A DNA stretch of 64,000 bases from an uncultured Gammaproteobacteria bacterium (lineage in GTDB: Bacteria > Patescibacteriota > Patescibacteriia > SBBC01 > CAIJZX01), in the NCBI GenBank assembly GCA_964518425.1, contig CAZFGG010000003.1:9634-73633 (forward strand), written 5' to 3'. The notes beneath the pieces are model-generated. The model ran no database searches and was not told the DNA's origin. It worked only from the letters and a program-made list of their open reading frames with translations. Below are positions 81 through 57,204 of this stretch, piece by piece. A program made the position numbers and the translations under genes. The stretch's first letter is position 1; every line of letters begins with the position of its first letter.

Positions 81-854
81 CTACTCCGACGAACGGTGGA
101 CTGGCAACTCAACACGCATGACTGATCGCAAGACCCGTTCACTCCGGAGTGGCTGGTCGATCGTGTGGTGGATCATGGCTTCGATTATTTTGTGAAGGTG
201 GAGGAGCGCTGGCCGTTCCGACTGCGGCCACTGGCCAGTCCGCAGGAAGAGGAGATGATGATCATCGAGCATCAAGGCATCGACCGCCGCTTCACCACGA
301 TGCACAAATCCGTACGCTGGTTCGTAGGCCGCTAGACCTTCCAAGGGGCGGTGACATCGGCCGCAGACGTCCAGACTCGGTCGGAACCCCTCGTGAGCCA
401 AGAAGAGGCTGGCGCGTCGGAGTAAGAGTAGCCAGCGGCGACCGAGTGGCATAACGACTTCACTGGACATCTCCACCAAGCTTTGCCGGACAAGATCGTA
501 CAGTCCGGCGGTCGGTTGGGCTGGCTTGGTCATGACATCAACTAACTCGAGTAGCCACTGACTACTGACCGAAGCCACGAGGTCATCGTGGAGGACCGGA
601 AAGCGGTCAATGATGACGCTGCCGATGACCTGCTCAACCACGCGGCCGTCGGCCAGGCTGAGATCAACTTCTGTCATTGGCTCAAGCGAGCCAGCGAGCT
701 TCGAGGTGCTCTTCTTTGTCCCCCGGGCACGCACTCGTAATTGCCCGTGCTGTGGCGTCAGGACAGTTAATAATCGGTCGTGTTCACGATCGGTTGAGTG
801 ACGGAGAATAATGGCTTTGGTATGGATGACAGCCATCGAGTTACGAGAGTCCAA
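81..854 (-). CDS. recO: DNA repair protein RecO
   Basis: 257 aa; N-terminal OB-fold-like region and C-terminal CGRC zinc-finger-like motif typical of RecO; overlaps the ileS stop by 14 nt. Confidence 0.6.
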   Translation of the reverse strand: MDSRNSMAVIHTKAIILRHSTDREHDRLLTVLTPQHGQLRVRARGTKKSTSKLAGSLEPMTEVDLSLADGRVVEQVIGSVIIDRFPVLHDDLVASVSSQWLLELVDVMTKPAQPTAGLYDLVRQSLVEMSSEVVMPLGRRWLLLLRRASLFLAHEGFRPSLDVCGRCHRPLEGLAAYEPAYGFVHRGEAAVDALMLDDHHLLFLRTGQWPQSERPALLHLHKIIEAMIHHTIDQPLRSERVLRSVMRVELPVHRSSE

Positions 855-3800
855 TCGTTACTGGTCCATCAATATCGATCTGTGCTGTTTGCGTCGCCCC
901 GTCCACCGACGGCGTCACGGCTTTCGCCCGGACATCGCGTAAGAACGTTTGCGCGTAGACCTCAATGACCTTGGCGGCCATCGTCTTCGGTTCAACATGA
1001 GCGATAATCTCATCGGTCGGTTTCAGTCCGGCTGTTTTCCGCAAGGCGTTGAACTCGCGGATGAGATCGCGGAGCATACCTTCGGCCTTGAGTTCATCGG
1101 TAATGGTTGTATCAAGCGCCACATCCTCCCCCACTGCCCATTCATTTCCCGTCGGAAGTTTTTCAGTTAAGTGGATTTCTTTAACATTCAGCTCATCACG
1201 GATCACCGCATCCAGGTCTGGGCGGAGCTGTTCGGTCGTAACGACTTGCTGTAGTGGTTGGCGGACTTTCAACCCAGCTTTGGCTCGTAAACTATGTCCT
1301 TGTTCCACGACCCGACGGGCCAGGGCCATGTCGGCAACCAACCGTTCATGCATCTCCCCCACTTTGGGCCAATCTTCGAGATGGACCGATTCCATTTCAC
1401 CACCAACCAGGTGATACACATGGTCGGCGAGGAACGGCGTAAACGGCGCCATGAGTTTTGAGAGCTTCAAGAGTACGTGCTGCAGCATGGCGCTGGCCAA
1501 CGGCGCTTGGTCGCCCTTGAACCGATCGCGCGACCGCCGAACATACCACGTCGATAAATCAGTCACAAAGGCTCCGATGGCCCGGGCCGCACCAGTGATA
1601 TCATAGTGCTCAAGTCGTTCGGTCACGTCTTTTGTCAGCATGTTGACCATCGAGTGAATCCAACGGTCGAGTGGGTGCGTCGCCTGTTCCGGATCGGTGG
1701 TTGGACCTTGGTACAGTTGCCAGAAGCTGACGACGTTCATCAAGATGAGAAAAGTTTTTTTTACACCGTCATCAACAATTTTCGTGTCGAAATTTTTTGG
1801 ATCCCAGGGCTGATTCGTGGTGTACATGAACCAGCGCAAAGCGTCAGCCCCATGCTTGTCGAAGAGCTCATTCAAATCACCATAATTCTTGAGCGACTTC
1901 GATAGTTTGCGTCCTTTGGCATCGTTGAGGTGTCCGAGGACAACTACGTTTTCGTATGAGGCGTGCTTGACGACCTTGGACTTCTGCAGGAGCGTGCTGA
2001 TCGCTAAGAGCGTGTAGAACCAGCCACGCGTTTGGTCAATCGCTTCGGAAATATAGTTGGCCGGATAGGCTTTGCCCGCATCAATACTTTCCTTGTTCTC
2101 GAATGGATAATGGTATTGCGCGAACGGCATAGCACCCGAATCGAACCAAGCGTCCCCGACTTCCGGGATCCGTTTCATGGTCCCCTGGTGACATTTCTGA
2201 CAAAGCCATGTCACACCGTCAATATACGGCCGATGCGGATCAAAACTGCCGTCGAGTTGCAGCAGACCACCATGGAATTTCAGTTCTTCTGGTTGCCCAT
2301 ACGGCACGTCTTCGAACCGCGTGAGCGTCGGAATTGATTGAAGTGATGTCGCCCATTTTGTCACGAGGATCGGGTCAGCGTGCGTAACAATAACGAATGT
2401 CTTGCCTTCATGGTGAGTATCGAGATCAGACAAGAAACTGATCATCCGTCGGCGAATATCTTTCCACGTTTCTCCACCCGGCGGCGCATCGTCTAAACGC
2501 TTGGCGCGATCACCAAATTTCTCATGAAACTCTTCGATCGTTTTTTCTTCGTAGGCCGGGCCGATGTGGTATTCGTTGATGGCTGTTTCTTCAGTGACGG
2601 ACAGGCCAAGTACTTCCGCATAGATTTCAGCCGTCTCTTTGGCGCGCAAGAATTGTGAAGAGTAGAGCCCATCAACTGATTCTTTTTTCAGTTTTTCAGC
2701 ACCAGCCTTGGCTTCCGCCCGACCTGTGTCAGTCAACGGATATTTCTGGGTATTCGTCAATTCGGTATTCAGCTTGTGTTCAAGATTGAGATTCGACTCT
2801 CCATGCCGGACAAAGAAATACCTGTTGCGTGTCGGCAAATGATCCAATAACTCTTGGTATGAGCCAAGACATTCTTGATGGGCACAATCCTGATTATCAC
2901 ACTGCCAAATCGGCAGCGGTGTCCCCCAATACCGTTCACGCGAAATCGCCCAGTCTTTGACTTCGCGCAGCCATTCGCCAAACCGACCTTCTTTAATGTG
3001 ATTCGGGTACCATTTGATGCTCTCGTTATTCTTGATCAGATCATCACGAAGTTTCGACATCATGATGAACCACGTCATTTTGGCGTAGTACAACAATGGA
3101 TGTTTACACCGCCAGCAAAACGGGTAATCGTGTTTGTACTTCTCAACCTTATACAATTTCCCGTGTTCTTGTAGCCAAGCGATAATTTTTTGTTGCGTCT
3201 CCCCTGCTGGGTCTTTGACTTCTAATCCAGCCCAGGGTTTCACTAAATCATTAAACTTACCAGTAAGGTCGACCGTATGAACTTTCGGCAAGTCGAGTCG
3301 CTGGCCAAGCTTGAAGTCGTCTTCACCATACATCACAGCCGTGTGGACGATGCCTGTGCCGTCTTCGGTCGTGACGAAGTCTGCCTCGGCAATGTAATAG
3401 GCTTTCTTACCTGACTCTTTCGATAAATCAACGAAGTCGAAAAGTGGCCTGTATGCTTGCCCGAGAATTTTTTTGCCCGGAAAACTTTCGACAATTTCAT
3501 GATCACCATTAAGTTTGTGAAGCAACGCTTTGGCAATAATCACGAACTCATCTCCTGACTTAACTTTGATGTATTCAATATTCGGATCAATCGCTAAGGC
3601 GACATTCCCCGGTAATGTCCACGGTGTCGTTGTCCAGGCCAGAACAAAAGTTCCTGGTTCATCGATCAGTTCAAATTTGACGTAGACAGAATCTTCTTCA
3701 ATGTTCTGATATCCTTGCGCCACCTCGTGACTCGACAAGGCCGTGCCGCAGCGCGGACAATACGGCACCACCTTGTAATCCTGTTCCAGTAATTTCTTAT

Positions 3801-4329
3801 CCCAAATCTGCTTGTAGATCCACCACAAGCTCTCAATGTATTCCGGCTGGTAGGTAATGTAGGGATGGTCCGTGTCCAGCCAAAAACCAACGCGCTCAGT
3901 CATCTTTTCCCACAAGTCCTTATACTTCCATACGGATTCTTTGGCCTTGGCGTTGAATTTCTCGATCCCGTACTTCTCGATATCTTTCTTGCCGGAAATG
4001 CCTAAATCTTTTTCGACCTCTAATTCAACGGGCAACCCTTGGGTGTCCCAACCGGCTTTCCGTTCAACGTGAAATCCCTGCATGGTTTTGAACCGCGGGA
4101 TAATGTCCTTGAAGGCCCGGGTTTCAACGTGACCAATGTGCGGAATACCGTTGGCTGTCGGCGGTCCGTCATAAAACACAAAGTTGCCCTGGGGTGAGGA
4201 CTTGGCTAAGGTTTTCTTGAAAATGTCCTTAGCGGCCCAGTCCTTCAGGATCTCTTCTTCGAGTTCGGGGAATTTGGGGATGGGCATTAGGGCAATCGAT
4301 GAACGGTACTGATGGCGATGATTAGCCAA
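841..4329 (-). CDS. ileS: Isoleucyl-tRNA synthetase with an inserted histidine-phosphatase (PGAM-like) domain
   Basis: HIGH motif (PHIGHVETR), KMSKS motif (KLSKSL), WGTPLPIW and DAWFDSG editing/catalytic signatures; 1162 aa, about 200 aa longer than typical IleS. Confidence 0.9.
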   Translation of the reverse strand: MANHRHQYRSSIALMPIPKFPELEEEILKDWAAKDIFKKTLAKSSPQGNFVFYDGPPTANGIPHIGHVETRAFKDIIPRFKTMQGFHVERKAGWDTQGLPVELEVEKDLGISGKKDIEKYGIEKFNAKAKESVWKYKDLWEKMTERVGFWLDTDHPYITYQPEYIESLWWIYKQIWDKKLLEQDYKVVPYCPRCGTALSSHEVAQGYQNIEEDSVYVKFELIDEPGTFVLAWTTTPWTLPGNVALAIDPNIEYIKVKSGDEFVIIAKALLHKLNGDHEIVESFPGKKILGQAYRPLFDFVDLSKESGKKAYYIAEADFVTTEDGTGIVHTAVMYGEDDFKLGQRLDLPKVHTVDLTGKFNDLVKPWAGLEVKDPAGETQQKIIAWLQEHGKLYKVEKYKHDYPFCWRCKHPLLYYAKMTWFIMMSKLRDDLIKNNESIKWYPNHIKEGRFGEWLREVKDWAISRERYWGTPLPIWQCDNQDCAHQECLGSYQELLDHLPTRNRYFFVRHGESNLNLEHKLNTELTNTQKYPLTDTGRAEAKAGAEKLKKESVDGLYSSQFLRAKETAEIYAEVLGLSVTEETAINEYHIGPAYEEKTIEEFHEKFGDRAKRLDDAPPGGETWKDIRRRMISFLSDLDTHHEGKTFVIVTHADPILVTKWATSLQSIPTLTRFEDVPYGQPEELKFHGGLLQLDGSFDPHRPYIDGVTWLCQKCHQGTMKRIPEVGDAWFDSGAMPFAQYHYPFENKESIDAGKAYPANYISEAIDQTRGWFYTLLAISTLLQKSKVVKHASYENVVVLGHLNDAKGRKLSKSLKNYGDLNELFDKHGADALRWFMYTTNQPWDPKNFDTKIVDDGVKKTFLILMNVVSFWQLYQGPTTDPEQATHPLDRWIHSMVNMLTKDVTERLEHYDITGAARAIGAFVTDLSTWYVRRSRDRFKGDQAPLASAMLQHVLLKLSKLMAPFTPFLADHVYHLVGGEMESVHLEDWPKVGEMHERLVADMALARRVVEQGHSLRAKAGLKVRQPLQQVVTTEQLRPDLDAVIRDELNVKEIHLTEKLPTGNEWAVGEDVALDTTITDELKAEGMLRDLIREFNALRKTAGLKPTDEIIAHVEPKTMAAKVIEVYAQTFLRDVRAKAVTPSVDGATQTAQIDIDGPVTIGLS
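2217..2832 (-). other. Inserted histidine phosphatase / phosphoglycerate-mutase-like domain inside ileS (about aa 500-705)
   Basis: FFVRHGESNLN (RHG catalytic motif), LTDTGRAEAKAGAEKL, ETWKDIRRRM, IVTHADPI (second catalytic His). Lies between WGTPLPIW and DAWFDSG, where canonical IleS has only about 60 aa. Confidence 0.65.
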
Positions 4330-4628
4330 AGAGCGATCAGGCCAAGGAAAAATTTACCTATATTTCGGACTCGAGAACCCATCTTGGCAAATAACGATGT
4401 GATCAGAAAAATGGCGGCAATAACAGCCATGCTGGGGAAAATGAGGAAGGGCGACGTCCACGAGTCAAAAAAAATACTTTTCACGCCAGGCCGGTCAGCG
4501 ACTTGGGAAAAAGTTAGCTGGGCCACGACGACGGCCAGCATGAGCAGTACAGTCCATTTCCATCGTTCAACCGAAATGGCCCTTGTATTGTGCTTACCTT
4601 CTAGTTCTTTTTGAAGTGATGGTTCCAT
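4287..4628 (-). CDS. Small integral membrane protein (3 predicted TM helices), unknown function
   Basis: 113-aa ORF, hydrophobic segments; its 3' end overlaps the ileS start by 43 nt. Confidence 0.4.
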   Translation of the reverse strand: MEPSLQKELEGKHNTRAISVERWKWTVLLMLAVVVAQLTFSQVADRPGVKSIFFDSWTSPFLIFPSMAVIAAIFLITSLFAKMGSRVRNIGKFFLGLIALWLIIAISTVHRLP

Positions 4629-5426: not shown

Positions 5427-6572
5427 CTACCGATGCAATGCTCGATAGACTTTTATTGTGCGCCGAGCCGTTTTCTCCCAGGAAAATTGCTTGGCTCGTT
5501 TTTGCCCTTCGACTGATAATCGCTTGGCTATTTTTTCATCTGTCAGAACGGACTTCATGGCTTGGGCTAGCCCCTCAATGTCGTTCGGTTCAACCATCAA
5601 GGTGGCTTTGCCCGCTACTTCCGGAATTGACGCGGTTGAGGTGGTGATAACCGGTACGCCAATTTGCATCGCTTCAAGCACGGGCAGACCGAATCCTTCG
5701 TAGAGGGTTGGGGAAACGAAGGCAGCCGCGTGCTGCATTAAGAGAATTTTATGATTTCGCGAGACGTAGCCAATGTGTTTGACCGTTGAGGACAGGTTCA
5801 TTTTTTTGATCAAGGCTAAGATCGGTTCGCCACTAAAACCAATGCCGCCGGCTAAAACGAGCTGTGTATTTTTCACCGCTTCAGGTCGATGGATGAGCAA
5901 CCGTTTCCACGCTTCGAAGAGTACTTGTAGGTTTTTTCTCGGCTCAATCGTCCCAACGAAGAGGATATACCGTTTCGGAAGCTTGTAAAATTCCCGGACG
6001 TCATGGTCTTTGTCATGAAGATCGAGTAAAGCGGTATCAGCCGCTTCCGGAATGACCGTTATTTTTTTATCGGGGACATTGAAGAAATCTTGAATATCGC
6101 TTTTGGTCGCTTCAGAGACGGCGATAATGTGTTTCGCTCGCTTAATACTTTGCGGTACAAGGAGGCGCGTCGAGAACATTTGCGCTGGGAACCATTCCGG
6201 GTGTTTATAGATCGCTAGGTCGTGGATCGTAATGACGCTCCGCTTAGGGTAGGTCAAGGGAATTGTGTTGGCCGGGCCGTGGAAAAGATTGAGGCGGTGT
6301 TTCAATAAGGCAGCCGACACGAGCATGTGTGAATAAGCGAACGGTAAGAACCGGCTATAGCTCGAGAACGGGAAGAAGGCAATGTCCACATTCGCCTGAA
6401 CGAATTCCTGGGTCGCTTCGCGGGGCATGCGGTAATCGAAAAAGAGAACAAAAGAATTATCCTTGTCATGATCGAGTAGTGTTCGGACCAGGTGGTAGGT
6501 GTAGTGCCCGACGCCAGCTCGCTCCCCGGAATCCGGATTAAGAATAGTGCGGCAATCGATTCCGATTTTCAT
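5427..6572 (-). CDS. Glycosyltransferase family 4 (GT-B, retaining)
   Basis: 381 aa; EGFGLPVLEAMQIGVPVITT C-terminal GT1/GT4 motif. Confidence 0.8.
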   Translation of the reverse strand: MKIGIDCRTILNPDSGERAGVGHYTYHLVRTLLDHDKDNSFVLFFDYRMPREATQEFVQANVDIAFFPFSSYSRFLPFAYSHMLVSAALLKHRLNLFHGPANTIPLTYPKRSVITIHDLAIYKHPEWFPAQMFSTRLLVPQSIKRAKHIIAVSEATKSDIQDFFNVPDKKITVIPEAADTALLDLHDKDHDVREFYKLPKRYILFVGTIEPRKNLQVLFEAWKRLLIHRPEAVKNTQLVLAGGIGFSGEPILALIKKMNLSSTVKHIGYVSRNHKILLMQHAAAFVSPTLYEGFGLPVLEAMQIGVPVITTSTASIPEVAGKATLMVEPNDIEGLAQAMKSVLTDEKIAKRLSVEGQKRAKQFSWEKTARRTIKVYRALHR

Positions 6573-11122: not shown

Positions 11123-11151
11123 TTGACAAATCCCTTATTTTCCCCTATACT
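11123..11151 (+). promoter_or_regulatory. Sigma70-type promoter upstream of tmRNA: TTGACA-N17-TATACT
   Basis: TTGACA at 11123-11128, 17-nt spacer, TATACT at 11146-11151. A second -10 (TACAAT, 11206-11211) lies 8 nt before the tmRNA 5' end. Confidence 0.55.
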
Positions 11152-11219: not shown

Positions 11220-11622
11220 GGGGATGTTCAAACGTCGATCGATCGTTGATAGCTCGATTGGTATCATGCCGAACCGCCGACAACTTCGTAAAAATGTCGG
11301 ACATGATAAGTGCCAATACACTTCTCAGCAAACTTCGGACCGCGGTAGCTCGCGCTTTCGCGACCCCGTCGTTTGTTCCCGCCTTCGCTTAATACCGTTG
11401 GCGCATCCGTCTCCTGACTCCGGTTAGGGAATCACGGGTGTCACTTCACCGGACCGATTGGTAGACCGTTCAGTCCTAGCAATCGGTATTGTCTGAACAC
11501 CGTCATCACGACTTCTCGTTCGTTGTCTACGTGGTGACGTTATCCAACAGCGGACTATGCATGTAAGACGTACTATCGGGATATCCGTCGCCACGCGGGT
11601 GCAAGACCCGCCATCTCCACCA
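11220..11622 (+). ncRNA. ssrA: tmRNA (SsrA)
   Basis: Immediately downstream of smpB. 5' GGGGAUG pairs with 3' CAUCUCC followed by ACCA (11612-11622). T-arm-like GCGGG-UGCAAGA-CCCGC. Internal tag reading frame ends ...ATPSFVPAFA-TAA, like the Mycoplasma-type long tags that end AFA. 5' UUCAAACGUCGA resembles the conserved tmRNA UUCGACG. Confidence 0.6.
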
Positions 11623-11628
11623 AAAGCT

Positions 11629-11657
11629 ACTGTCCGAAAGGATGGTCGTTTTTGTTT
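11629..11657 (+). terminator. Rho-independent terminator after tmRNA
   Basis: ACUGUCC-GAAA-GGAUGGU hairpin (7 bp, GNRA-like loop) followed by UUUUUGUUU. Confidence 0.6.
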
Positions 11658-11690
11658 CTGCTCTCATGGTGTGCTACAGTGAATTGAGAA

Positions 11691-12164
11691 ATGAGTTCGA
11701 AAAAAAGCTCCATTCTCCCAATCGCCGTTATGGCTCTGGCCATTGTCGCGTTTTTGTTCGTCATCAACTGGGCGATCACGCCGAACCAAAAATTGCCATG
11801 GTTGACCAATAGTAGTCAGGTCAAGACGACGAACACAAACACTTCCCCTGAAGGAACAAACGTCGTGTTAGCCGGCAAGGTCTGGATATATGGTTGTCCG
11901 GCTCAGCGGGTGAATACTCCTTGCGGTGGACCGCCGCCCACCAGCGACACTATTGTGGTGTACTCTGGCAACCGATCGACGGTCGTCGCGAAACAACAGT
12001 ATGGTCAAAACGGCTCGTTCCATTTCTCGTTACCAGCTGGAACCTACATCCTGGCTCTCGGAACGTATGGCCTCAGCTCCGGTCAAAATGAGCGACAAGT
12101 GACGCTCACATCCGGCCATGACGTGACCGATCTGTCGATTCAACTCGATAGCGGGATACGATAG
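11691..12164 (+). CDS. Small secreted or membrane-anchored protein, paralog family with a conserved N-terminal leader
   Basis: N-terminus SILPIAVMALAIVAFLFVINWAITPNQKLPWLT shared with ORFs 12201..12644 and 19739..20857; C-terminal beta-rich domain. Confidence 0.55.
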   Translation: MSSKKSSILPIAVMALAIVAFLFVINWAITPNQKLPWLTNSSQVKTTNTNTSPEGTNVVLAGKVWIYGCPAQRVNTPCGGPPPTSDTIVVYSGNRSTVVAKQQYGQNGSFHFSLPAGTYILALGTYGLSSGQNERQVTLTSGHDVTDLSIQLDSGIR

Positions 12165-12200
12165 CTCAAAAACAGCTTTTCTGCTATCCTGTAAGTAGAG

Positions 12201-12644
12201 ATGCTCGAGGTCACAACACGTAAAGGAAGTGTTCTCCCCATCGCCGTCATGGCCTTTGCCATCGTGGCCTTTTTGTTCGTTATGGATTGGGCCGTCAATC
12301 CGCACCAGCGATGGCCGTGGTCGACAACTTCTGCGTCCAAAAACACAAACATCGTAGCCTGTACCCAAGAAGCCAAACTTTGTCCTGATGGAAGTTACGT
12401 TGGTCGGACTGGGCGGGACTGTGCGTTCGCGACCTGTCCGAGTGTGAACGCTAACATGTCCATCAATTCATCAAACTACAACACGAATAGTCCAGAACTC
12501 ACTCCCCAAGAGGACAAGAATAATGCCAATAGCAACACCAACGAATCAGTCTCCTGTGGCGACGCGGCCTACCGTTGTCCTGATGGCAGCTTCGTCTTCG
12601 AGGTTCCCCCGACCTGTCACTTCGCCGCCTGCCCTGGCACCTAG
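12201..12644 (+). CDS. Small secreted Cys-rich protein, same leader family; internal duplicated CPDGS...C..A.CP motif
   Basis: SVLPIAVMAFAIVAFLFVMDWAVNPHQRWPWST leader; CPDGSYVGRTGRDCAFATCP and CPDGSFVFEVPPTCHFAACP repeats; shares NTNSPELTPQED with 19739..20857. Confidence 0.55.
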   Translation: MLEVTTRKGSVLPIAVMAFAIVAFLFVMDWAVNPHQRWPWSTTSASKNTNIVACTQEAKLCPDGSYVGRTGRDCAFATCPSVNANMSINSSNYNTNSPELTPQEDKNNANSNTNESVSCGDAAYRCPDGSFVFEVPPTCHFAACPGT

Positions 12645-18423: not shown

Positions 18424-19543
18424 TTAGACTTTGTCATCACTCCCGGCAACTTTAGGGCGGCCTGCCTTGACCCATCGCAAGTAGGCCTCCATAAACGGCA
18501 GGAGGTCGCCATTCAACACCTGATCGACCTGCGACGTTTCCTGCTTGGTCCGATGATCTTTGACCATCCGATAGGGCTGTAAAACGTACGACCGAATTTG
18601 ATTTCCCCAGGCCGCTTCGTGGTATTCCCCACGCAGTTTTGATTTTTCATCGGCCCGTTTTTGCAACTCAAGTTGATGAAGTTTCGCCTTAAGAATTTTC
18701 ATGGCTGTCTCCTTATTCTGCGTCTGCGATCGCTCATTCTGGACGGAGACCATAATCTTCGTCGGCAAATGGACCACCCGAACAGCCGAGTACGTTGTCT
18801 GGACGCTTTGTCCGCCATGTCCAGACGACAAGAACGTATCAATACGTAAATCTTTCGGATCGATGATTATCGACTCAATCTCTTCAAGCTCTGGCAAGAC
18901 TTCGACCAGGGCGAAGGACGTATGTCGCATTTTTTCCGCGTCAAACGGTGAGATACGGACGAGGCGATGAACACCAGCTTCGGACTTGAGATAGCCGTAG
19001 GCCAGTCGCCCTTGAACCTCAAACGTTATGCTCTTAATCCCCGCTTCTTGGGCGCGGGATTCATCGACGACTTTGGTCTTCCACCCGCGCTGCTCACAGA
19101 ATCGCAGCAGCATCCGCGACAACATCTCCGCCCAGTCCATGGCGTCCGTTCCACCGGTGCCAGCGTGAATACTGACGATCGCATTGGCTTCGTCGTGCTC
19201 ATCGCCGAGAAGTAACAAAAATTCCAGTTGCCGGTACTGGTCCTCAAGTTCAGCGACATGCTTTTCAACTTCGGGCCGCTGGGATTCCTCGGCCATGCCA
19301 GCTAACTCAATCCACGATTGAACTTCTTTTTCTATCTTCTCCCAAGACCCAACTTCATCTTTCAGCTCTTTCAAGAGGCGGCTCTTCGTTTCGGCGGTGG
19401 CCCGGTCAGCCCAAAACTCCGGCTGGCTCATCGCCTCCTCGAGCTCCCCTATCTGTTGTCGTTTTTGATCGAGGTCAAAGTAAGCCCCGTGCCGAAGCGA
19501 TCTTCGTACGGAGCGTCTCCAGTTTTCTGACCAGGTCGTTCAT
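18424..19543 (-). CDS. prfB: Peptide chain release factor 2, with a programmed +1 frameshift
   Basis: Frame 0: ATG at 19543, MNDLVRKLETLRTKIASARGLL then TGA. Continues in the +1 frame (DLDQKRQQIGELEEAMSQPEFW...); SPF and GGQ motifs. Confidence 0.9.
19474..19480 (-). other. RF2 +1 ribosomal frameshift site CUU UGA C
   Basis: Canonical heptamer CTTTGAC preceded by an SD-like GGGGC, 3 nt upstream. Confidence 0.85.
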
Positions 19544-19738: not shown

Positions 19739-20857
19739 CTAGGTGAAGGTGAAGGTGGAAAGAATGGTTTTGGGTACAGTGGAAGAATCGGAGCCAGCCC
19801 GTAAGAGAATGTTTCTTTCACCCGTCCAACTAGTCGGTGGTGTGCTGAATTTAATGGTAGTGGCGGGTGAACAGGATGTGCAGTTGGCTGAAGAAACAAC
19901 GGTCCAATCGCTTTGAGTGGCCATCTTATTGCCGACAGTTACTTGCGAGGTTGTGGCTGTATATTGAGCATCTTGGGTCACGAGACAACCCTGGCTAGTC
20001 GGACACACTTCAAATAAAATATTGGAGTTAGCCGGATCCGTTACTAACGCATACTCGGTTCCAAACACATTCTTTGGATCATCCGCGTGGGCGGTTTGCA
20101 AACTCCAATTCGATGGGTACTTGAACGAATACCCATACTTCGTATCAGTATACGTCTTCCACCCGGCGGTGGGATCGGTGATAACTAACGTCGACAGAAT
20201 AATTCGAAGTGTTTCGATGTCAGCCGATGTCTTTGGTTCAGAAGTAATGTTGTTGTTGGCAGTCCATCCATTCATACGATACGTTGTTAGGACGTAATAG
20301 TCGTAGTTAGGAAGATTTGTAGCCCCTAAATTCTTCCGTACGGTTTTCTTGGCTACCTGCCCAGCCAGCGTCACAGTTTCGGTGGAAATCACATTGCTAT
20401 CGTCTGTCGTTGACCCATCTGGGATAACGTAGAATAAAGACTTTGTTGTCGGCGCGGTTACCCCTGCGCCTACTGACAATGCGGGCTTTGTATCTAACGT
20501 CCAATTTGTCGGATACTTGAAAGAGAAGCCATGTGTCGAATCCGTATACGTCTTCCAATCCGCCGTTGCATCAACATCCCCGTGCGTCGGGCCGATGTTA
20601 GCATTTTGCTGATCTTCTTGGGGCGTTAGTTCGGGACTATTGGTGTTGTAGATTGGGGTGTTTACCACCTGCCCGGTATTCGTGTTCGCGGTGTTCTCCA
20701 CCTTCGTTGACCATGGCCATTTCAGCCCCGGCGAGACTGCCCAAGCGATAACGAAAATAAAAGCCGCCACGGCAAAGGCCATTACAGCGATGGGGAGAAT
20801 GGAGGCACGACGCATAGGGTTTGTTGTTATTTCTGCGGTGGATAAAGTATAGCACAA
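19739..20857 (-). CDS. Secreted protein of the conserved-leader family with two tandem about 110-aa domains
   Basis: Leader SILPIAVMAFAVAAFIFVIAWAVSPGLKWPWST; duplicated GWKTYTD..G(F/Y)SFKYP(T/S)NW(T/S)L domains. Confidence 0.55.
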   Translation of the reverse strand: MCYTLSTAEITTNPMRRASILPIAVMAFAVAAFIFVIAWAVSPGLKWPWSTKVENTANTNTGQVVNTPIYNTNSPELTPQEDQQNANIGPTHGDVDATADWKTYTDSTHGFSFKYPTNWTLDTKPALSVGAGVTAPTTKSLFYVIPDGSTTDDSNVISTETVTLAGQVAKKTVRKNLGATNLPNYDYYVLTTYRMNGWTANNNITSEPKTSADIETLRIILSTLVITDPTAGWKTYTDTKYGYSFKYPSNWSLQTAHADDPKNVFGTEYALVTDPANSNILFEVCPTSQGCLVTQDAQYTATTSQVTVGNKMATQSDWTVVSSANCTSCSPATTIKFSTPPTSWTGERNILLRAGSDSSTVPKTILSTFTFT

Positions 20858-20908
20858 AATATCAGCCCCTCCCCTGAATTCAGGGGAGGGGCTTGGGGTG
20901 GGGCGAGA

Positions 20909-31749: not shown

Positions 31750-33318
31750 TTATTGCCCGAGCAATCCGTCCGGCCATGACGGTAAGGGTCGGTCCTCTTG
31801 CCCAAGACGTTGGTAAAGATAGACTCGGTCGTCATGATAGACTTGCCGATAGGCTGGAGATCCATCGAGCCATGGAATCAGGCGATCAAGCATAACTTTT
31901 TCAGCCAGACGCTTATCATTCGTCATTAGTTGGGGGTCGAATTTTCTGGCCAGGATAACGATGTAGTCGACGGAGGTAATACCATTCGGTAATAACTGTA
32001 CCACTGGCCGCTCAGCGAGAAGCGGGCCGAGATTTTGCGTGAGCGCGACCGATGATCGACCAGGAATCATGGCCAGGGCCCGCTGCACCTGGGGAGTCAG
32101 GTGTTCACGCCAGCGGACAATGGGCCAGCGATTTTGCTCGCTCGTCGCCGTCAAGGGGCTGAACGCATAGGTCGACAACACGCTTCCCCCGAGGATGAGT
32201 ATGCTCAGTCCAACATCGACGAATCGGCGTAGCGGCGCCCAGTGCCGTAGCCAGGCCCATCCAAAGCACGTACTCAAGAACAGGAATGGAATAAATAGCG
32301 CGTGATAATGGAGAACGACAGTCTGCATGTTCGGGCTATCGGATAGCCAGTACAGCAGAACTTCTGGGGTAGCCAAGAAAACGATGGGGCTCAGTAATGG
32401 CCCAATGATTCCCAGAGGTAACGCCAGCTGCACCGCTGAGTGGAGATGGATTGAAGTAAAAAGCTTGTGGGCGACGGTAGACGGATGAAGCAGATGACTC
32501 AGGATTCCTGCCAGCCCGTCATCGTGTTCACTAAAAAACTTGTAGGCGAAGCTAGCCGGTAACGCCGGACGAGAGAGTGGGATAATGATCGCTATTTGGA
32601 GGACAGCCCAAGCCCAAGGAATCGCTAAGGCCCATCCAGCTAAACGGCGGCGATGTTGCCACCAGGCCACGGCCCCAGCCAGGAGACCTAGTGTTATTCC
32701 AGCTTGTTCTTTAGTCAGGAGCGCTAAACTAAGCCACATCCAAAACAGGCGATCTCGACGATCAAGGAGTGCGTCCATCGCCGCCAAGAAAAAAGTAACG
32801 GCCAGGGTCACAGCATGAAATTCAAACATGGTGGCAAACTGCAGCGGGGAATAGAACAAGTAGACCAGTGCCAGTATCCAAGCTGGCCACGGTCCGAGGA
32901 GGCGCCGGGCTAAGCGATACAGAAACCAAGCGCCGACGGCAACGACTGTCGCTTGGACAATCAGCAAGAGTTCCGCCGTGTGACCAAACCAACTCAGCGG
33001 CGCCAAGAGGGCCAACACATAGTCAGCGTGAATGCTAGTTCGCGGGGCTGTCCAGCCATGAACCCCGCCCGGACCGAGTTCCGGATTCGTAAAGGTAAAA
33101 CCGAAACCATGTCCGACCCGCCAAACCGTCTGCGTCATGATGCCGAGATCGTACCAGCCGGCATTGAAATTATGAGCGCGGGCAATAGAAAACCAACTGA
33201 AGAAAACCGCGTACACTCCAATCGCCACCCAGAGTAGGCGCTGCATCCAGCGTTCTAGGATCGATCGCGTAAAAGGAGGCGTGTGCTTCATGGATGATAC
33301 GCAGCGACCCCGCCTCAA
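31750..33318 (-). CDS. DUF2079-like polytopic membrane protein (possible GT-C-like glycosyltransferase)
   Basis: 522 aa, more than 10 TM helices with a C-terminal soluble domain; the real start is probably MKHTPPF (aa 10). Confidence 0.45.
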   Translation of the reverse strand: MRRGRCVSSMKHTPPFTRSILERWMQRLLWVAIGVYAVFFSWFSIARAHNFNAGWYDLGIMTQTVWRVGHGFGFTFTNPELGPGGVHGWTAPRTSIHADYVLALLAPLSWFGHTAELLLIVQATVVAVGAWFLYRLARRLLGPWPAWILALVYLFYSPLQFATMFEFHAVTLAVTFFLAAMDALLDRRDRLFWMWLSLALLTKEQAGITLGLLAGAVAWWQHRRRLAGWALAIPWAWAVLQIAIIIPLSRPALPASFAYKFFSEHDDGLAGILSHLLHPSTVAHKLFTSIHLHSAVQLALPLGIIGPLLSPIVFLATPEVLLYWLSDSPNMQTVVLHYHALFIPFLFLSTCFGWAWLRHWAPLRRFVDVGLSILILGGSVLSTYAFSPLTATSEQNRWPIVRWREHLTPQVQRALAMIPGRSSVALTQNLGPLLAERPVVQLLPNGITSVDYIVILARKFDPQLMTNDKRLAEKVMLDRLIPWLDGSPAYRQVYHDDRVYLYQRLGQEDRPLPSWPDGLLGQ

Positions 33319-46743: not shown

Positions 46744-47451
46744 TTATTGGGATGGAACGACAGGCGCTTTGTACTCAATGACTGGGGTCTGGAACGTTCG
46801 GGCTCGATAGACTGGCCAGGCTCGAACGGCGGTCCGGCCGATAATTTGCGTACGCATAACCGGACCAAAGATCCGTGAATCAAGGCTGGCTGGTCGGTTA
46901 TCGCCTAAGACATAGAATTCGTTTTGACCGAGTGTCACGTCAAGGTGGCCAAAGGTTATCCGATCAGGCGGCAAATATTCTGATTCATTAAGGATGGCGC
47001 CGTCCGGATGAGCTGTATCAAAAACAGTTATTTCACCATCATTAATTGTTAAGCGGTCGCCGGGAAGGCCGATAACTCGTTTAATCAGAAATTCGCTGGG
47101 TTGGCTAGGATTTCGCAAAACAATGACGTCTCCGCGGGCCGGCTGGTGCAACCGGTAGGACAATTCATCAATGATGAGATATTCATTGTCATGAAAGTTC
47201 GGTTCCATCGACGCCCCCTTGACGTAGAACGGCTGGAGAATAAAGAACCTGATCGGAATAATGATCGCGAAGGCGATGACGATGATTTTGACAAGTTCCG
47301 CGGCAAAACTCCCAGCTGATCGATTGAAGCTCGGGAGAAAGTCTGATCGTTTTTCTGTAGCGGCCAATTTCCGTAAGTCAGTGCTCATACCACGAAAACG
47401 GCGTGGGTCACCAAGTGGGTTTTCCGGAGTAGACGTTGGAGAAGTAGGCAT
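46744..47451 (-). CDS. lepB: Signal peptidase I (S26)
   Basis: GASMEPNF (catalytic Ser box) and GDNRPASLDSR box E. Confidence 0.85.
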   Translation of the reverse strand: MPTSPTSTPENPLGDPRRFRGMSTDLRKLAATEKRSDFLPSFNRSAGSFAAELVKIIVIAFAIIIPIRFFILQPFYVKGASMEPNFHDNEYLIIDELSYRLHQPARGDVIVLRNPSQPSEFLIKRVIGLPGDRLTINDGEITVFDTAHPDGAILNESEYLPPDRITFGHLDVTLGQNEFYVLGDNRPASLDSRIFGPVMRTQIIGRTAVRAWPVYRARTFQTPVIEYKAPVVPSQ

Positions 47452-47625: not shown

Positions 47626-48315
47626 TTAACGTCGAGACAGGCGCCAGGCTAAGCGAAGGTCTTCAATAATGATGGACCAGGAGAATTTTGATTGGCCTGC
47701 CCGTCGATCGGTAAAGACCATCGGCACTTCGGCCACCCGGGCTCCCGCTCGCCGCGCCAGCCAGGTCATTTCCATCAACCACGCGTATCCGCGCCCCTCC
47801 ATTGTCTGTGCCAGGATCCGGTTCAAGATGTCAGCCCGCCAAGCTTTGTAGCCAGTACTCCAGTCGTGAATGTCCCATCCAAGCAGAAGCCGGATATAGA
47901 CATTCCCGAAAGTGCTGATCCAGCGTCGAAACCAAACAATATTGACCCGGCCACCAGGCACATAGCGCGAAGCAATAACCACATCATGGTTATCGAGTGC
48001 GGCCAAGAGCGCCGGAATGAGGCTGGGCGGATGTGATCGATCAGCGTCGAGTTGAATAATCGCCTGCGCGCCATGTTCCAGGGCATAACGAAAACCTGCT
48101 TGGTAGGCGGTGCCCAGCCCAGCTTTAGCTGGGCGATGGATGACATGAATCCGAGGATGCTGCTGATGGAGTTCATCCGCTAGCTGCCCCGTCCCATCGG
48201 GTGAATTGTCATCAACCACGACGACATCAACGTCTCCAATGCTGAAAATTTCGTCGATCAGCGGCTTGAGGTTGTCCCGCTCGTTGTAGGTCGGCGTAAC
48301 GATCCAGGTGGTCAT
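47626..48315 (-). CDS. GT2 polyprenol-phosphate glycosyltransferase (DPM1-like)
   Basis: VTPTYNERDNL, VVVDDNSPDGT and QLDADRSH GT-A motifs. Confidence 0.8.
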   Translation of the reverse strand: MTTWIVTPTYNERDNLKPLIDEIFSIGDVDVVVVDDNSPDGTGQLADELHQQHPRIHVIHRPAKAGLGTAYQAGFRYALEHGAQAIIQLDADRSHPPSLIPALLAALDNHDVVIASRYVPGGRVNIVWFRRWISTFGNVYIRLLLGWDIHDWSTGYKAWRADILNRILAQTMEGRGYAWLMEMTWLARRAGARVAEVPMVFTDRRAGQSKFSWSIIIEDLRLAWRLSRR

Positions 48316-49991
48316 GACGATCGACGGCGGCTCGGGCGCCGGGGTCGAGAGCGACGCGTCGGTCGTTCAAGATCGCGCTCGATATTTTCCAATGATTCTT
48401 CAACTTCAAGATCGGACAACTGCTTCCGACGAACCTGTCGGCGAAGTGTATCAATTTCTTCTTCCGCCCTGAGATCCCGTTGGTGCATCCGTTGGACAGC
48501 CACCAGGAGCCGGATCATGGTCCAGGTAATCAACCCTGCGAAAAAGATCAGAGCCAGCGTGGCGACCGGAAGAAATGCTACGGTGGCAATTGGCCGACCG
48601 CCCAGCAGAACGGAGTGCCCGCTCACAACGAGTGGGACTGGATCGCTCGCCACGCTCACTTGGCCGTCAGGGCCCATTGCAACAGCGGTGACGTTGTAAT
48701 GACCGGGACGAAAAACCTGATCGGTCGCGAGGGTCCACGGCGCTCGAACCGTTACCCCGCTCGCTAGCGCTGAAGGATCAACTTGTCCAGCGACCGATTG
48801 TCCAACCGCCTGACCATTAACATAGACCGTGACCGTATCTCCGGCGTTAGCGGTTCCCTTCACCTCCAGGCGGTCAAGGAGAAGCAGTGGACTGGTCAGA
48901 CTGGTGATCGTAGGAGCCTGGTAGCCTTCTTGTCCAACGGTCACTTCACTCGCGGTACTATTTCCAGCTTTATCAACCGCCGTGACCACGACCGTATGTT
49001 GCCCAGATTTCAGATCAGTCAGGGTAGCCGGACTAGAAACCGTCGTGGCCGGAACGCCGTCGAGGGATACTGTGTAGTGATCAACTCCGCTCGTGGCATC
49101 AGTCGTTTCGAACTGGACCTGGGGAGTCGGGTCTGATGGTCCCCGATCACGGATGACGGAGAGCGTGAAGTGGTCTGGTGCCGTATGGTCGTATTGCAGA
49201 CGGAATCGCTTCAGTCCGCCCCAGCCATCGCTGGTATGACTCTGGAGTACAAAATACCATACACCATCTGCGGGGAGAGAAACGCTGGCGGCAGTCAACG
49301 TTGTTTCGGTGAATTGATCGGGCGTAGCATTCGCGTCTTGGGTCAGAGCATATCGAAAACTCGTCACTCCGGATGGCTGTGACCACGTCATACTGGCTTG
49401 GCTCTGCTGGTACCAAGCATTTTCGCTTGGATGAGTAGTCGAGCTCACCGATGGCAGCGTCGGACTAGGGTTCGACGGAGCGGGTGTCGGAGTCGAGGCG
49501 GCCGTGACGGTGATTGAGGCTGTCCCGACACTCGTTAAAATATCAGTACCTTGCCCGTCATTCGCCAAGACCTTAGCTCCGCTGATTGAAAGATCCGCTT
49601 GGCCAACGGCGGTGGCTCGAAAAGTTGCGGAAATGATTTTCCCTCCGCTACCCGTATATCCTGGACTTGGTAAGCCGCCAGAAAGGGTAATACGTCCAGT
49701 GCTATTCGAACCGCTTGGCTGGACTGCCCAAAAGCTAAAAATTGATCCGCTCGTACTGAGGGAACTCAGTTGGAGGCGATTGGTTGAAAAAACAATGGTC
49801 GCTTCGGCAGCATTAATGGCTTGTCCGCCGGTGTTCACTTTTAAGGATAAGGTCACCGTCGAGCCAACTGCAAGAGATTTGCTGGCTGGGCTAAAATAGA
49901 GGCTCGCCCCAGCAGCCTTGGCGGGCTGCGCCCAAACGCTCACCAGTGTCCAGGCAAGCATGACCGTCAGTAAAGAAATTCGTCGGATCAT
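48312..49991 (-). CDS. Cohesin-domain surface protein with a C-terminal TM anchor and charged coiled-coil tail (paralog 1)
   Basis: Signal peptide; cohesin-like about 140-aa beta-sandwich (ASLYFSPASKSLAVGSTVTLSLKVNTGGQAINAAEATIVF...ISATFRATAVGQADLSI); second beta domain (GVWYFVLQSHTSDGW); C-terminal TM plus RRKQLSDLEVEESLENIERDLERP. Confidence 0.6.
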   Translation of the reverse strand: MIRRISLLTVMLAWTLVSVWAQPAKAAGASLYFSPASKSLAVGSTVTLSLKVNTGGQAINAAEATIVFSTNRLQLSSLSTSGSIFSFWAVQPSGSNSTGRITLSGGLPSPGYTGSGGKIISATFRATAVGQADLSISGAKVLANDGQGTDILTSVGTASITVTAASTPTPAPSNPSPTLPSVSSTTHPSENAWYQQSQASMTWSQPSGVTSFRYALTQDANATPDQFTETTLTAASVSLPADGVWYFVLQSHTSDGWGGLKRFRLQYDHTAPDHFTLSVIRDRGPSDPTPQVQFETTDATSGVDHYTVSLDGVPATTVSSPATLTDLKSGQHTVVVTAVDKAGNSTASEVTVGQEGYQAPTITSLTSPLLLLDRLEVKGTANAGDTVTVYVNGQAVGQSVAGQVDPSALASGVTVRAPWTLATDQVFRPGHYNVTAVAMGPDGQVSVASDPVPLVVSGHSVLLGGRPIATVAFLPVATLALIFFAGLITWTMIRLLVAVQRMHQRDLRAEEEIDTLRRQVRRKQLSDLEVEESLENIERDLERPTRRSRPRRPSRRRSS

Positions 49992-51412
49992 AGGGACGGG
50001 GCGGGTGGTGGAGGGGGCATGGTCGGAGGCGGAGGCGGAATCGTTGGCGAGACAGGCGTCGTTACCGTTGGAGGGACCGTCATATCGAGGTTGTGTTGAA
50101 CGAGTACTTGCGCTCGTTGAAGTTCATTTAATTCCCGCTGCAACTGATCAGATTTTTTTCGAGCGTCTTTCTCTAACGTCGCTAAGTCATGCTGGAATGT
50201 CGAGCGAATCCGGAGACGACGCACGATGAGGATCGTCAAGGCAATCAAGAGCAAGACCCCGAGTCCGAGAACGACAGCGTTAGCAACTGCTGGATTTCGC
50301 AATAATGGTACCCGGGCGAAGAACGATAGTCCAGCGGCCGTGACCGTTAATGTGACGCTGCCATCGGTCGCGTTGCCGGCCCGGTCGAAAGCCCGAACTT
50401 GCCATGCATACTTGCCAGCGGCCAAGGGGTTGATGATGTAGGGACTGGATGTTTCAACAAACAGCGTGTTGCCGGAACCGTCGCCACCGAGCGTCACTTG
50501 TCGAACTTCATAGTGATCGAGTCCCGAAGCTGCGTCCGTCGTTAAAAAACGTAAGGTTGTCGTATCTTGAGTGGTGACAATTGATTGGTCGATTTTCGGC
50601 GTGAACCCCGCGGGGGGCGTCGTGTCGATCTGGACCGGGTAGGACGTCGTTCCGCCCCAACTGACCGTCAGGGCCCGGATGTGAAAATACCAAACGCCAT
50701 CACTCGTAGCCTTGACGCTCGCTGAGGTTTGGGTCGTATCCACTTTTTCGTCGGGTGTCGACTTGGCCGTTTGATCGAAACTGTAGCTGTAGCCAAGTGC
50801 GCTGTCGATCGGTTCCCAGGCGAGTTGGACCTGGGAATTGCTATACCACTCATTACTATCCGGATGGGTCGGACTAGTCACGACCGGGCCAGCAGGGGGA
50901 GGGGTTTTGAGAGTAAGTTGAGCGGTCCCACTGCTGGTTAAGATGTTTGTTCCTTTGCCGTCGTTCCGTAAAACTTGTGAGGTCGGAGCAAACTTTATGG
51001 TGGCCGGGCCGGGTGATTTAACGCGAAACGTAACCGTGCTAATAACGCCGCCACTCGTTTTAATACCAGGGTTTGGCAGGCCTCCTTGAAAATGAATCGT
51101 GCCGTCGGTGTTAGAATACGACGGGGCAGTGACCCAAATCGAGATAAACGACGTACTGGCGACCGGATTAACGACTTGGAGTTTATCAGCCGGAAAAAGA
51201 ATATCAGCTTGGACCGCGTTGATGGCTTCCCCGCCAGTATCAACCAGGAACGACACGTCAATCGTACTACCGACTTCGTAGGTACCAGCTAGCGGTGAGA
51301 TGCTCAAGCTGGCGCCAGAGGCATACACAATTCGCCCCGTCGCGAGAAGTAGGATCAAGCTGAGCCCGACCGTCAGTGACCGACGCCCTGAGCCTGTGAT
51401 CTGTCGGACCAT
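49988..51412 (-). CDS. Cohesin-domain surface protein with C-terminal TM and Pro-rich tail (paralog 2)
   Basis: Same architecture (GASLSISPLAGTYEVGSTIDVSFLVDTGGEAINAVQADILF...; GVWYFHIRALTVSWGG; C-terminal TM plus a coiled-coil and PPPPPTMPPPPP). Start set to MVRQITG (51412) to avoid overlapping paralog 3. Confidence 0.6.
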   Translation of the reverse strand: MVRQITGSGRRSLTVGLSLILLLATGRIVYASGASLSISPLAGTYEVGSTIDVSFLVDTGGEAINAVQADILFPADKLQVVNPVASTSFISIWVTAPSYSNTDGTIHFQGGLPNPGIKTSGGVISTVTFRVKSPGPATIKFAPTSQVLRNDGKGTNILTSSGTAQLTLKTPPPAGPVVTSPTHPDSNEWYSNSQVQLAWEPIDSALGYSYSFDQTAKSTPDEKVDTTQTSASVKATSDGVWYFHIRALTVSWGGTTSYPVQIDTTPPAGFTPKIDQSIVTTQDTTTLRFLTTDAASGLDHYEVRQVTLGGDGSGNTLFVETSSPYIINPLAAGKYAWQVRAFDRAGNATDGSVTLTVTAAGLSFFARVPLLRNPAVANAVVLGLGVLLLIALTILIVRRLRIRSTFQHDLATLEKDARKKSDQLQRELNELQRAQVLVQHNLDMTVPPTVTTPVSPTIPPPPPTMPPPPPAPSL

Positions 51413-51434
51413 AGGCGGTGAGTATACCACAAGC

Positions 51435-53863: not shown

Positions 53864-53869
53864 GGAGAA

Positions 53870-54859: not shown

Positions 54860-54896
54860 GGTTGTGTCCCCTCCAGGATTAATACTGTTGGTTCTT

Positions 54897-55979: not shown

Positions 55980-56017
55980 ATCGTCCAGGCTAGAATGAAA
56001 AGTAGTTAGAGGGTGTA

Positions 56018-57118: not shown

Positions 57119-57204
57119 AATTGGAAAATAGTCTTGTTTTTCTTTGTTTTTACTTATTTCTGTCTATAGTATAGCACTTCCTGACAAAATGGTCAATCCA
57201 CAGG

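Follow-up and report, generated by a model that had tools for sequence, protein, structure and literature searches.

A conserved leader precedes unrelated ectodomains

Three genes in a 64,000-nucleotide stretch of contig CAZFGG010000003.1 (positions 9,634 to 73,633; hereafter the window, numbered from its first nucleotide) encode proteins that open with the same leader of about 40 residues and continue into ectodomains unrelated to one another. Judged from its sequence, this leader is a homologous, lineage-restricted N-terminal module for targeting or anchoring. In the three genes, designated A, B and C (Table 1), it comprises a basic start (KKS in A, RKG in B and RRA in C), a 22-residue hydrophobic helix (ILPIAVMAFAIVAFLFV..WA) and a juxtamembrane P..(K/R)WPWST motif, and it is followed by a Thr/Asn-rich low-complexity linker that leads to the ectodomain. 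Across the three proteins the helix reads (I/V)LPIAVMA(F/L)A(I/V)(V/A)AF(L/I)FV(I/M)xWA(I/V) and the juxtamembrane segment xPxx(K/R)(W/L)PW(S/L)T. When the first ~50 residues of the three proteins are aligned, 22 positions prove invariant, among them L-P-I-A-V-M-A, W-A, P and P-W. An earlier reading made from the letters of the window (the sequence-only reading) had proposed three genes with a common leader, and all three open reading frames (ORFs) are indeed present. It placed the third member, gene C, at 19739..20857; the gene and its end are correct, but the start is not. The gene begins at the ATG at 20815 (MRRASILP), which gives a protein of 358 aa identical to the database entry P0004, whereas the TTG at 20857, chosen by the ORF finder, overlaps a -10-like box. 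A Thr/Asn-rich linker motif common to two of the genes had also been described, and it is found as NTNSPELTPQED in B and C, to which it is confined among the window proteins and 70 relatives.

The leader is both specific within the window and rare outside it. A hidden Markov model of the leader, run over all six-frame ORFs of the window, scores gene A at 82.7, gene B at 91.4 and gene C at 85.4 bits and the next-best ORF at only 9 bits, and a fuzzy motif search of the window recovers the same three copies and no others. An exhaustive HMMER search of 1.84 billion representative proteins with the leader profile returns 73 proteins at E < 1e-3, 41 of them at E < 1e-10. Nearly all of the matches lie at the extreme N-terminus, starting at residue 1, and a few weak ones are repeat proteins. 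Genes B (P0003) and C (P0004) and their closest relative score between E = 1e-23 and 1e-26; gene A lies outside that collection. These scores and this rarity place the likeness well beyond generic signal-peptide composition and mark it as homology. The distribution is restricted: the named matches come from metagenome-assembled genomes of Candidatus Kerfeldbacteria, in the Parcubacteria group of Patescibacteria. A word-indexed homologue search retrieved only 2–6 short proteins, a metagenome scan 6 loci, mostly short, and a scan of viral contigs no member of the family. The three proteins and the 70 relatives have no match to the leader in Pfam or NCBIfam, their only matches being PsbP-like and located on the ectodomains, and literature searches returned no description of it. 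The leader appears to be an undescribed, phylum-restricted relative of the known conserved N-terminal targeting and anchoring domains, one without a curated model. The suggestion of a specific, lineage-restricted N-terminal module ahead of unrelated ectodomains is supported by these searches.

Within the family, the basic start spans 3–6 residues (M-R-[KR]-[GAS]), the helix follows the pattern [NST]-[IV]-L-P-I-A-x-M-A-F-A-I-V-[AG]-F-L-F-x-x-[D/x]-[WY]-[AS]-[IV], and an interfacial motif x-P-x-x-[KR]-W-P-W-S-[TV] closes the leader. The consensus of 57 anchored sequences is M-R-[KR]-[GA]-[NST]-[IV]-L-P-I-A-[VL]-M-A-F-A-[IL]-V-[AG]-F-L-[FL]-x-x-D-[YW]-[SA]-[IV]-x-P-x-x-K-W-P-W-S. The 14-residue core L-P-I-A-x-M-A-F-A-I-V-x-F-L has a mean pairwise identity of 76% in 61 proteins, and its columns are mostly 84–100% conserved on all faces of the helix, although the ectodomains are unrelated; IF3 is 68–75% identical across the genomes compared for the leader core. 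The subfamily TTPLVIAIMAFAVVAFLFLIDTAINPDGS and several other members keep the helix and have lost W-P-W-S, so that the helix, and not the mature N-terminus, is the constrained part. AlphaFold2 (AF2) predicts one helix with a disordered segment behind it in gene B (residues 11–32, from a 26-sequence alignment) and in gene A (residues 9–29).

Some members of the family carry additional leader sequence. The proteins P0008, P0011, P0032 and P0033 begin with a partial leader start (MRKGxILPIA), followed by P-S-T-S-S-G-Q-A-R, about 20 residues and then a complete leader. In the related locus L015 the leader start is duplicated at 3181–3300, and the two copies differ at synonymous sites, which indicates that the leader underwent a duplication or insertion long ago rather than a recent target-site duplication. 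The same locus holds three leader-family genes in tandem at 266–4578 (426, 537 and 465 aa), the middle one with a divergent leader (MRRASILPIAIMIGAVAAFLIVGYFALPW). The only Protein Data Bank (PDB) matches of the leader profile are designer beta-propeller repeats: profile positions 25–39 (D-Y-S-I-x-x-G-K-W-P-W-S) weakly resemble the blade motif of the designed propellers Bagel, Cake and Scone through a 15-residue D-x-S-x-x-G-K-W-x-W likeness. No stretch passed alone, and we judged these matches spurious; the resemblance of the juxtamembrane motif is probably due to chance, but may hint at a beta-hairpin.

A proposed uncleaved signal anchor and its alternatives

We put at roughly even the chance that the leader serves as an uncleaved signal anchor (N-in/C-out) and that an interaction common to the members constrains its helix. 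The protein would be inserted by the general route of Sec and the signal recognition particle with its N-terminus inside, cleavage would not follow, and the module would stay in the membrane as a type II signal anchor. The flexible Thr/Asn-rich linker would hold modular ectodomains (PsbP-like, 4-Cys mini-domain, beta-sandwich and others) at the outer face of the membrane, and the helix would make a sequence-specific contact common to all members, be it with a single membrane partner or with other members. Conservation extends to every face of the helix, far beyond the needs of anchoring, and we infer from this that a shared sequence-specific contact is probable. On this reading the family expands through tandem duplication and exchanges its ectodomain modules, while purifying selection keeps the leader in front of them constant.

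Hydropathy points to an anchor. The Kyte-Doolittle values over 19 residues (2.86 in gene A, 2.84 in gene C and 2.65 in gene B) are the highest of all N-terminal 19-mers in the window; the anchor of LepB reaches 2.64, and the cleavable AxA signal peptides of an NHL protein and of a cohesin/dockerin/Ig-like cluster 1.99–2.16. The sequence-only reading had called the three proteins secreted, which is doubtful: a 22-residue helix with the highest N-terminal hydrophobicity, and with no AxA in two of the three genes, fits a membrane-anchored protein better. The other exported proteins of the window have ordinary signal peptides or unrelated anchors, and the leader is therefore not needed for export in general.

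Four observations weigh against an uncleaved anchor with a shared contact. No partner or peptidase gene is found beside the family genes, whose neighbours are ribosomal, tRNA-synthetase, ComEC, RF2, HtrA and RecR genes. An S or an A always stands at the helix end, with A-W-A in gene C, and this is compatible with cleavage by signal peptidase I. The [KR]-[GAS] directly before the helix, together with a conservation peak in its cytoplasmic two-thirds, is what a prepilin-like (class III) signal predicts. Finally, the high conservation of the leader could stem in part from the few, closely related genomes sampled. The co-occurrence of a dedicated peptidase, sortase or rhomboid gene, suggested earlier as a check, yielded none, the sole signal peptidase of the window being an ordinary LepB 34 kb away.

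Several established signal classes do not describe the leader. The first 50 residues of genes A, B and C contain no Cys and hence no lipobox (L-[AS]-[GA]-C), as had been noted from the sequence. A Tat signal is contradicted by the presence of RR in gene C only (KK or RK in the others), by an extremely hydrophobic h-region and by the lack of a TIGR01409 match. The YSIRK and KxYKxGKxW signal domains of NCBIfam give no match at E <= 1. Nor do the proteins carry a sorting signal of the PEP-CTERM or LPXTG type, for their C-termini end in domain strands (e.g. ILSTFTFT) and lack a C-terminal hydrophobic segment.

A prepilin-like signal of class III is a rival reading that we consider rather unlikely. 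It would be cut between [KR]-[GAS] and [NST]-[IV]-L-P-I-A, and the hydrophobic domain would scaffold the ectodomains in a pilus- or bindosome-like structure. Genes A, B and C conform to the archaeal-type (PibD/FlaK) rule of K/R at -2 and G/A/S at -1 (KKS, RKG and RRA, each followed by S). Among 57 relatives, ~86% have G/A/S at the putative -1 position (G 63%, A 21%, other 16%) and 65% have K/R immediately before it. Conservation is highest in the first 14–15 hydrophobic residues and on all faces, as for a helix packed in a filament core, and the paralogues of the family are dispersed and vary in their C-terminal parts. Prepilin peptidases require G/A/S at -1, and in archaea the charge at -2 matters while E/D at +5 is not universal (PMC4371748); the six PilA pilins of H. 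volcanii have a conserved H-domain in common (PMC4371748), and the sugar-binding proteins of Sulfolobus provide the bindosome precedent (PMC3047682).

Against a prepilin-like signal, the -1 position holds S, G and A in genes A, B and C instead of an invariant Gly, about 14% of the members lack G/A/S there, and the position is less conserved than the helix core. In true pilins the -1 residue is the most conserved one. Downstream of it the GFTLIE pattern is absent: +1 is N/S/T and not F/M, +4 is Pro, and +5 is Ile and not E/D. Neither Pfam N_methyl (PF07963) nor NCBIfam TIGR02532 matches at E <= 1, and hhalign gives the leader profile a probability of 1.5% over 9 columns against ten bacterial pilin N-termini. 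The helix is predicted to run into a disordered linker and not into a continuing alpha-1 helix and a pilin head. No ORF of the window has the GFxxxE pilin form, and no pilin motif, A24 prepilin peptidase or PilB/PilC-type assembly gene is found in the 64-kb window or in the short related loci. The statement that the leader does not look like a class III pilin signal stands for the bacterial form of that signal.

The leader could also be a long Sec signal peptide, cut by signal peptidase I or a specialised paralogue after ...W/Y-[AS] and before [IV]-x-P, with x-P-x-x-K-W-P-W-S left as a retention or sorting tag; we regard this as fairly improbable. Substrates of signal peptidase I have small neutral residues at -3 and -1 (AxA) behind an h-region of 7–15 residues. 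All 57 relatives have S or A at the would-be -1 position, gene C reads A-W-A before V, and a LepB (Peptidase_S26, E = 3.6e-42) is encoded at 46744–47451. W-P-W-S is conserved right after the site, as it would be in a mature N-terminal signal. Yet the would-be -3 residue is A in gene C only, being N in A and D in B as well as in 58% of the family, and the von Heijne -3/-1 rule disfavours D/N and charged or large polar residues at -3. The 22-residue core, with values of 2.65–2.86, resembles an anchor more than the cleavable signals of the window (1.99–2.16), and TTPLVIAIMAFAVVAFLFLIDTAINPDGS and other members dispense with W-P-W-S altogether. Cleavage of gene C by signal peptidase I is possible.

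A more speculative view, to which we attach a low probability, treats the leader as a sorting signal for a machinery of the candidate phyla radiation (CPR) lineage, made up of a non-canonical prepilin-type or intramembrane peptidase and an assembly platform, that would build a surface array. If true, an array assembled through identical helices would be a bacterial counterpart of the archaeal bindosome and would serve host contact by episymbiotic cells.

Selection on the peptide

The 35 codons of the leader are ~70% identical in DNA among genes A, B and C, and 8–12 of them differ only synonymously in each gene pair. This identity is what the peptide itself demands, and no more. The likeness extends from the S-I-L-P codons to the P-W-S-T codons, and an alignment of the upstream DNA, proposed as a way to find cassette boundaries, leaves only a -10-like box (TGnTAxxxT) in common. 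In the linker of genes B and C, 33 of the 39 nt of YNTNSPELTPQED are identical and all 6 differences are synonymous. Such moderate DNA identity with many synonymous differences indicates purifying selection on the peptide and not a recombination cassette. The earlier statement that the leader is conserved at the DNA level is accurate for the likeness that the peptide requires and goes no further; the antisense ORFs said to mirror the leader are present, but are mere artefacts of the likeness of the coding strands. An RNA-level element in the leader was considered and rejected, since the variation sits at synonymous third positions.

It is very improbable that the leader is a shared recombination cassette, its 5' end held identical by gene conversion for surface-gene exchange or expression-site switching as in the variable lipoproteins of mycoplasmas: tandem pairs and triplets of leader genes exist (A and B in the window; L003, L006 and L015), ectodomain modules are shuffled among members and a 13-residue linker motif is common to B and C, but the idea is largely refuted by the synonymous divergence, which marks even the duplicated leader start of L015, by a likeness that stops exactly at the end of the conserved peptide, by the lack of repeats, an invertase or an integrase nearby, and by the occupation of the same housekeeping slots in genomes that share only 56–77% identity in their core proteins.

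Comparison with known systems

The leader resembles a generic type II signal anchor in its short basic cytoplasmic start, single helix of ~20 residues, outer aromatic belt and external C-terminal domain. Ordinary anchors, however, are conserved in hydrophobicity only, whereas the core of the leader is kept in sequence across unrelated ectodomains. With PilA1-6 of Haloferax volcanii and the bindosome proteins of Sulfolobus (PMC4371748, PMC3047682) it has in common the organization into dispersed paralogues, the conserved N-terminal hydrophobic domain with variable extracellular parts, and the basic residue and G/A/S directly before that domain. It departs from them in failing the bacterial and archaeal pilin rules downstream of a variable -1 position, in having neither likeness to pilin profiles nor assembly genes in the window and related loci, and in the disordered linker predicted after the helix. 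The YSIRK-G/S and KxYKxGKxW domains offer another parallel, as conserved N-terminal export motifs found on otherwise unrelated surface proteins of one lineage, where the motif implies a special export route or site. Their motif, however, lies in the n-region of cleaved signal peptides and is accompanied by C-terminal LPXTG anchors, whereas the conserved part of the leader is the helix itself, with no C-terminal anchor and no NCBIfam match. The Vlp/Vsa lipoproteins of mycoplasmas are likewise multigene surface families with a common N-terminal export sequence and variable regions, but they have a lipobox Cys, near-identical 5' DNA and site-specific recombination, in contrast to a leader without Cys and with 70% DNA identity.

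On the prevailing view, CPR bacteria live attached to other cells; to our knowledge almost nothing is known of how they display surface proteins. The leader is a searchable marker with which the surface proteome of one CPR phylum can be listed, and a lead for partner discovery. The exosortase-, rhombosortase- and SipW-type systems were discovered from such signals by phylogenetic profiling. Should a partner exist, the leader would point to a dedicated route of display or processing; if there is none, it would be the well-conserved anchor of a lineage-specific paralogous family, good for annotation and unsurprising.

Layout of the three genes

The family ectodomains are mosaics of a few modules, as judged by BLAST. 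In gene A the low-confidence AF2 model (single-sequence, pLDDT 50) places six strands after the helix at residues 9–29; the protein has no match in Pfam and only weak ones in NCBIfam. PDB sequence searches with genes A and B found nothing. Gene B carries two 4-Cys modules, the first of which has eight residues (C54, C61, D63, G64, R69, C74, F76 and C79) invariant in 26 family members and is predicted as a small beta-hairpin (pLDDT 75–85, 26-sequence alignment). In the second, AF2 places strands at residues 123–125 and 132–134 with lower confidence. A 27-residue consensus of the module, C-T-x-E-A-K-L-C-P-D-G-S-x-V-G-R-x-G-P-x-C-x-F-x-x-C-P, occurs in ~25 of the 70 relatives. No match to it is found in Pfam or PDB, and it is probably a mini-domain stabilised by disulfide bonds or by a metal.

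The ectodomain of gene C consists of two PsbP-like domains, each beginning with (D/G)WKTYTD and the second ending in ILSTFTFT. In Pfam it matches PsbP_2 (PF18933) at E = 2.4e-10 (41.2 bits against a cut-off of 27) and PsbP at E = 9.9e-9 (35.9 against 23.5), and PsbP-like matches occur in 24 of the 70 relatives. A terminator hairpin at 20864–20893 closes the HtrA gene ahead of the -10-like box of gene C.

Table 1. Features of the leader genes and their surroundings in the window
Feature	Position	Strand	Description and basis
tmRNA gene	11220..11622	+	Rfam RF00023, 84.8 bits; 69 nt upstream of gene A; missed by ARAGORN
Extended -10-like box of gene A, TGTGCTACAGT	11670..11680	+	putative, read from sequence; 10 nt upstream of the ATG
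Gene A	11691..12164	+	ORF, 157 aa: leader (residues 1–39), T/N-rich linker, predicted all-beta ectodomain without family assignment
Gene A transmembrane helix, ILPIAVMALAIVAFLFVINWAI	11712..11777	+	residues 8–29; AF2 helix 9–29; Kyte-Doolittle 2.86
Gene A juxtamembrane motif, TPNQKLPWLT	11778..11807	+	degenerate xPxxKWPWST; alignments, family column statistics
Extended -10-like box of gene B, TCTGCTATCCT	12180..12190	+	putative; upstream of gene B
Gene B (P0003, exact match)	12201..12644	+	ORF, 147 aa: leader, 4-Cys module, linker with NTNSPELTPQED, second 4-Cys module
Gene B transmembrane helix, VLPIAVMAFAIVAFLFVMDWAV	12231..12296	+	residues 11–32; AF2 helix, pLDDT ~90; hydropathy 2.65
Gene B juxtamembrane motif, NPHQRWPWST	12297..12326	+	motif search, alignment, family consensus
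Gene B first 4-Cys module, CTQEAKLCPDGSYVGRTGRDCAFATCP	12360..12440	+	invariant residues in 26 family members; AF2 beta-hairpin
Gene B linker motif, NTNSPELTPQED	12480..12515	+	common to gene C
Gene B second, divergent 4-Cys module, CGDAAYRCPDGSFVFEVPPTCHFAACP	12555..12635	+	internal repeat; BLAST match to the first module of relatives
Gene C (P0004)	19739..20815	-	ORF with revised start, 358 aa: leader, linker with NTNSPELTPQED, two PsbP-like domains
Gene C ectodomain	19742..20557	-	two tandem PsbP-like (Mog1/PsbP fold) domains; Pfam, BLAST to ectodomains of relatives
Gene C linker motif, NTNSPELTPQED	20612..20647	-	common to gene B
Gene C juxtamembrane motif, SPGLKWPWST	20705..20734	-	motif search
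Gene C transmembrane helix, ILPIAVMAFAVAAFIFVIAWAV	20735..20800	-	residues 6–27; alignment; hydropathy 2.84
Extended -10-like box of gene C, TGTGCTATACT	20846..20856	-	putative; upstream of gene C, just after the HtrA terminator hairpin

Genomic setting

The leader genes occupy syntenic positions while their ectodomains turn over. RecO, IleRS, GT4, ArgRS, SmpB, IF3, L20, ComEC and RF2 of the window are 48–84% identical to their counterparts in related loci, with the same gene order. An identity of 56–77% between its housekeeping proteins and those of the Kerfeldbacteria assemblies, in collinear order, places the window in that lineage. One slot, SmpB-(GNAT)-tmRNA-[1–2 leader genes]-infC-rpmI-rplT, is conserved in the window, L002, L003, L007 and L012, and its infC side is also found in L001 and L010; the ectodomains encoded in it vary between genomes. 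A second slot, L21-[leader gene]-RecR, is common to L004 and L005.

The transfer-messenger RNA (tmRNA) gene of the window is preceded by a near-consensus promoter-like site, TTGACA-17-TATACT (11123–11151), and a terminator-like hairpin lies at 11629–11646. In L002, L003, L007 and L012, too, the tmRNA lies immediately ahead of the leader genes, on the opposite strand in three of these loci. L004 (CAYLHT010000004.1) is labelled 'uncultured Gammaproteobacteria', but has the gene order of the CPR locus L005 (ribosomal protein cluster, SecY, Adk, Map, a Glycos_transf_4 gene, [leader gene], RecR, DnaB), and its label is therefore probably a binning error.

The region 48312–63972 (-) is taken up by a long cluster encoding secreted proteins that have ordinary AxA signal peptides and include cohesin, dockerin, Ig-like and WxL-interacting-like domains. 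Its last ORF, of 2255 aa, extends nearly to the edge of the window, and the cluster may be a separate surface-assembly system. The linkers of the family are rich in N-x-T/S and in Thr runs and may be glycosylated. Candidate glycosylation genes near the family genes include a GT-C-type membrane protein at 31750–33318 (-) (DUF2079/PMT_2-like in Pfam), YfhO at 12564–14657 of L012, and 5427–6572 (-). Two more were recognised by eye: 47626–48315 (-), which resembles a polyprenol-phosphate sugar synthase (GT2), and L004 14410–16005, which resembles a GT-C protein. The RF2 gene of the window (prfB) has at 19431–19543 (-) a CTT TGA C with GGGG ahead of it, the classical site of programmed +1 frameshifting; the 335-aa ORF at 18424–19431 covers only the frame downstream of this site, and the gene truly begins with the ATG at 19543.

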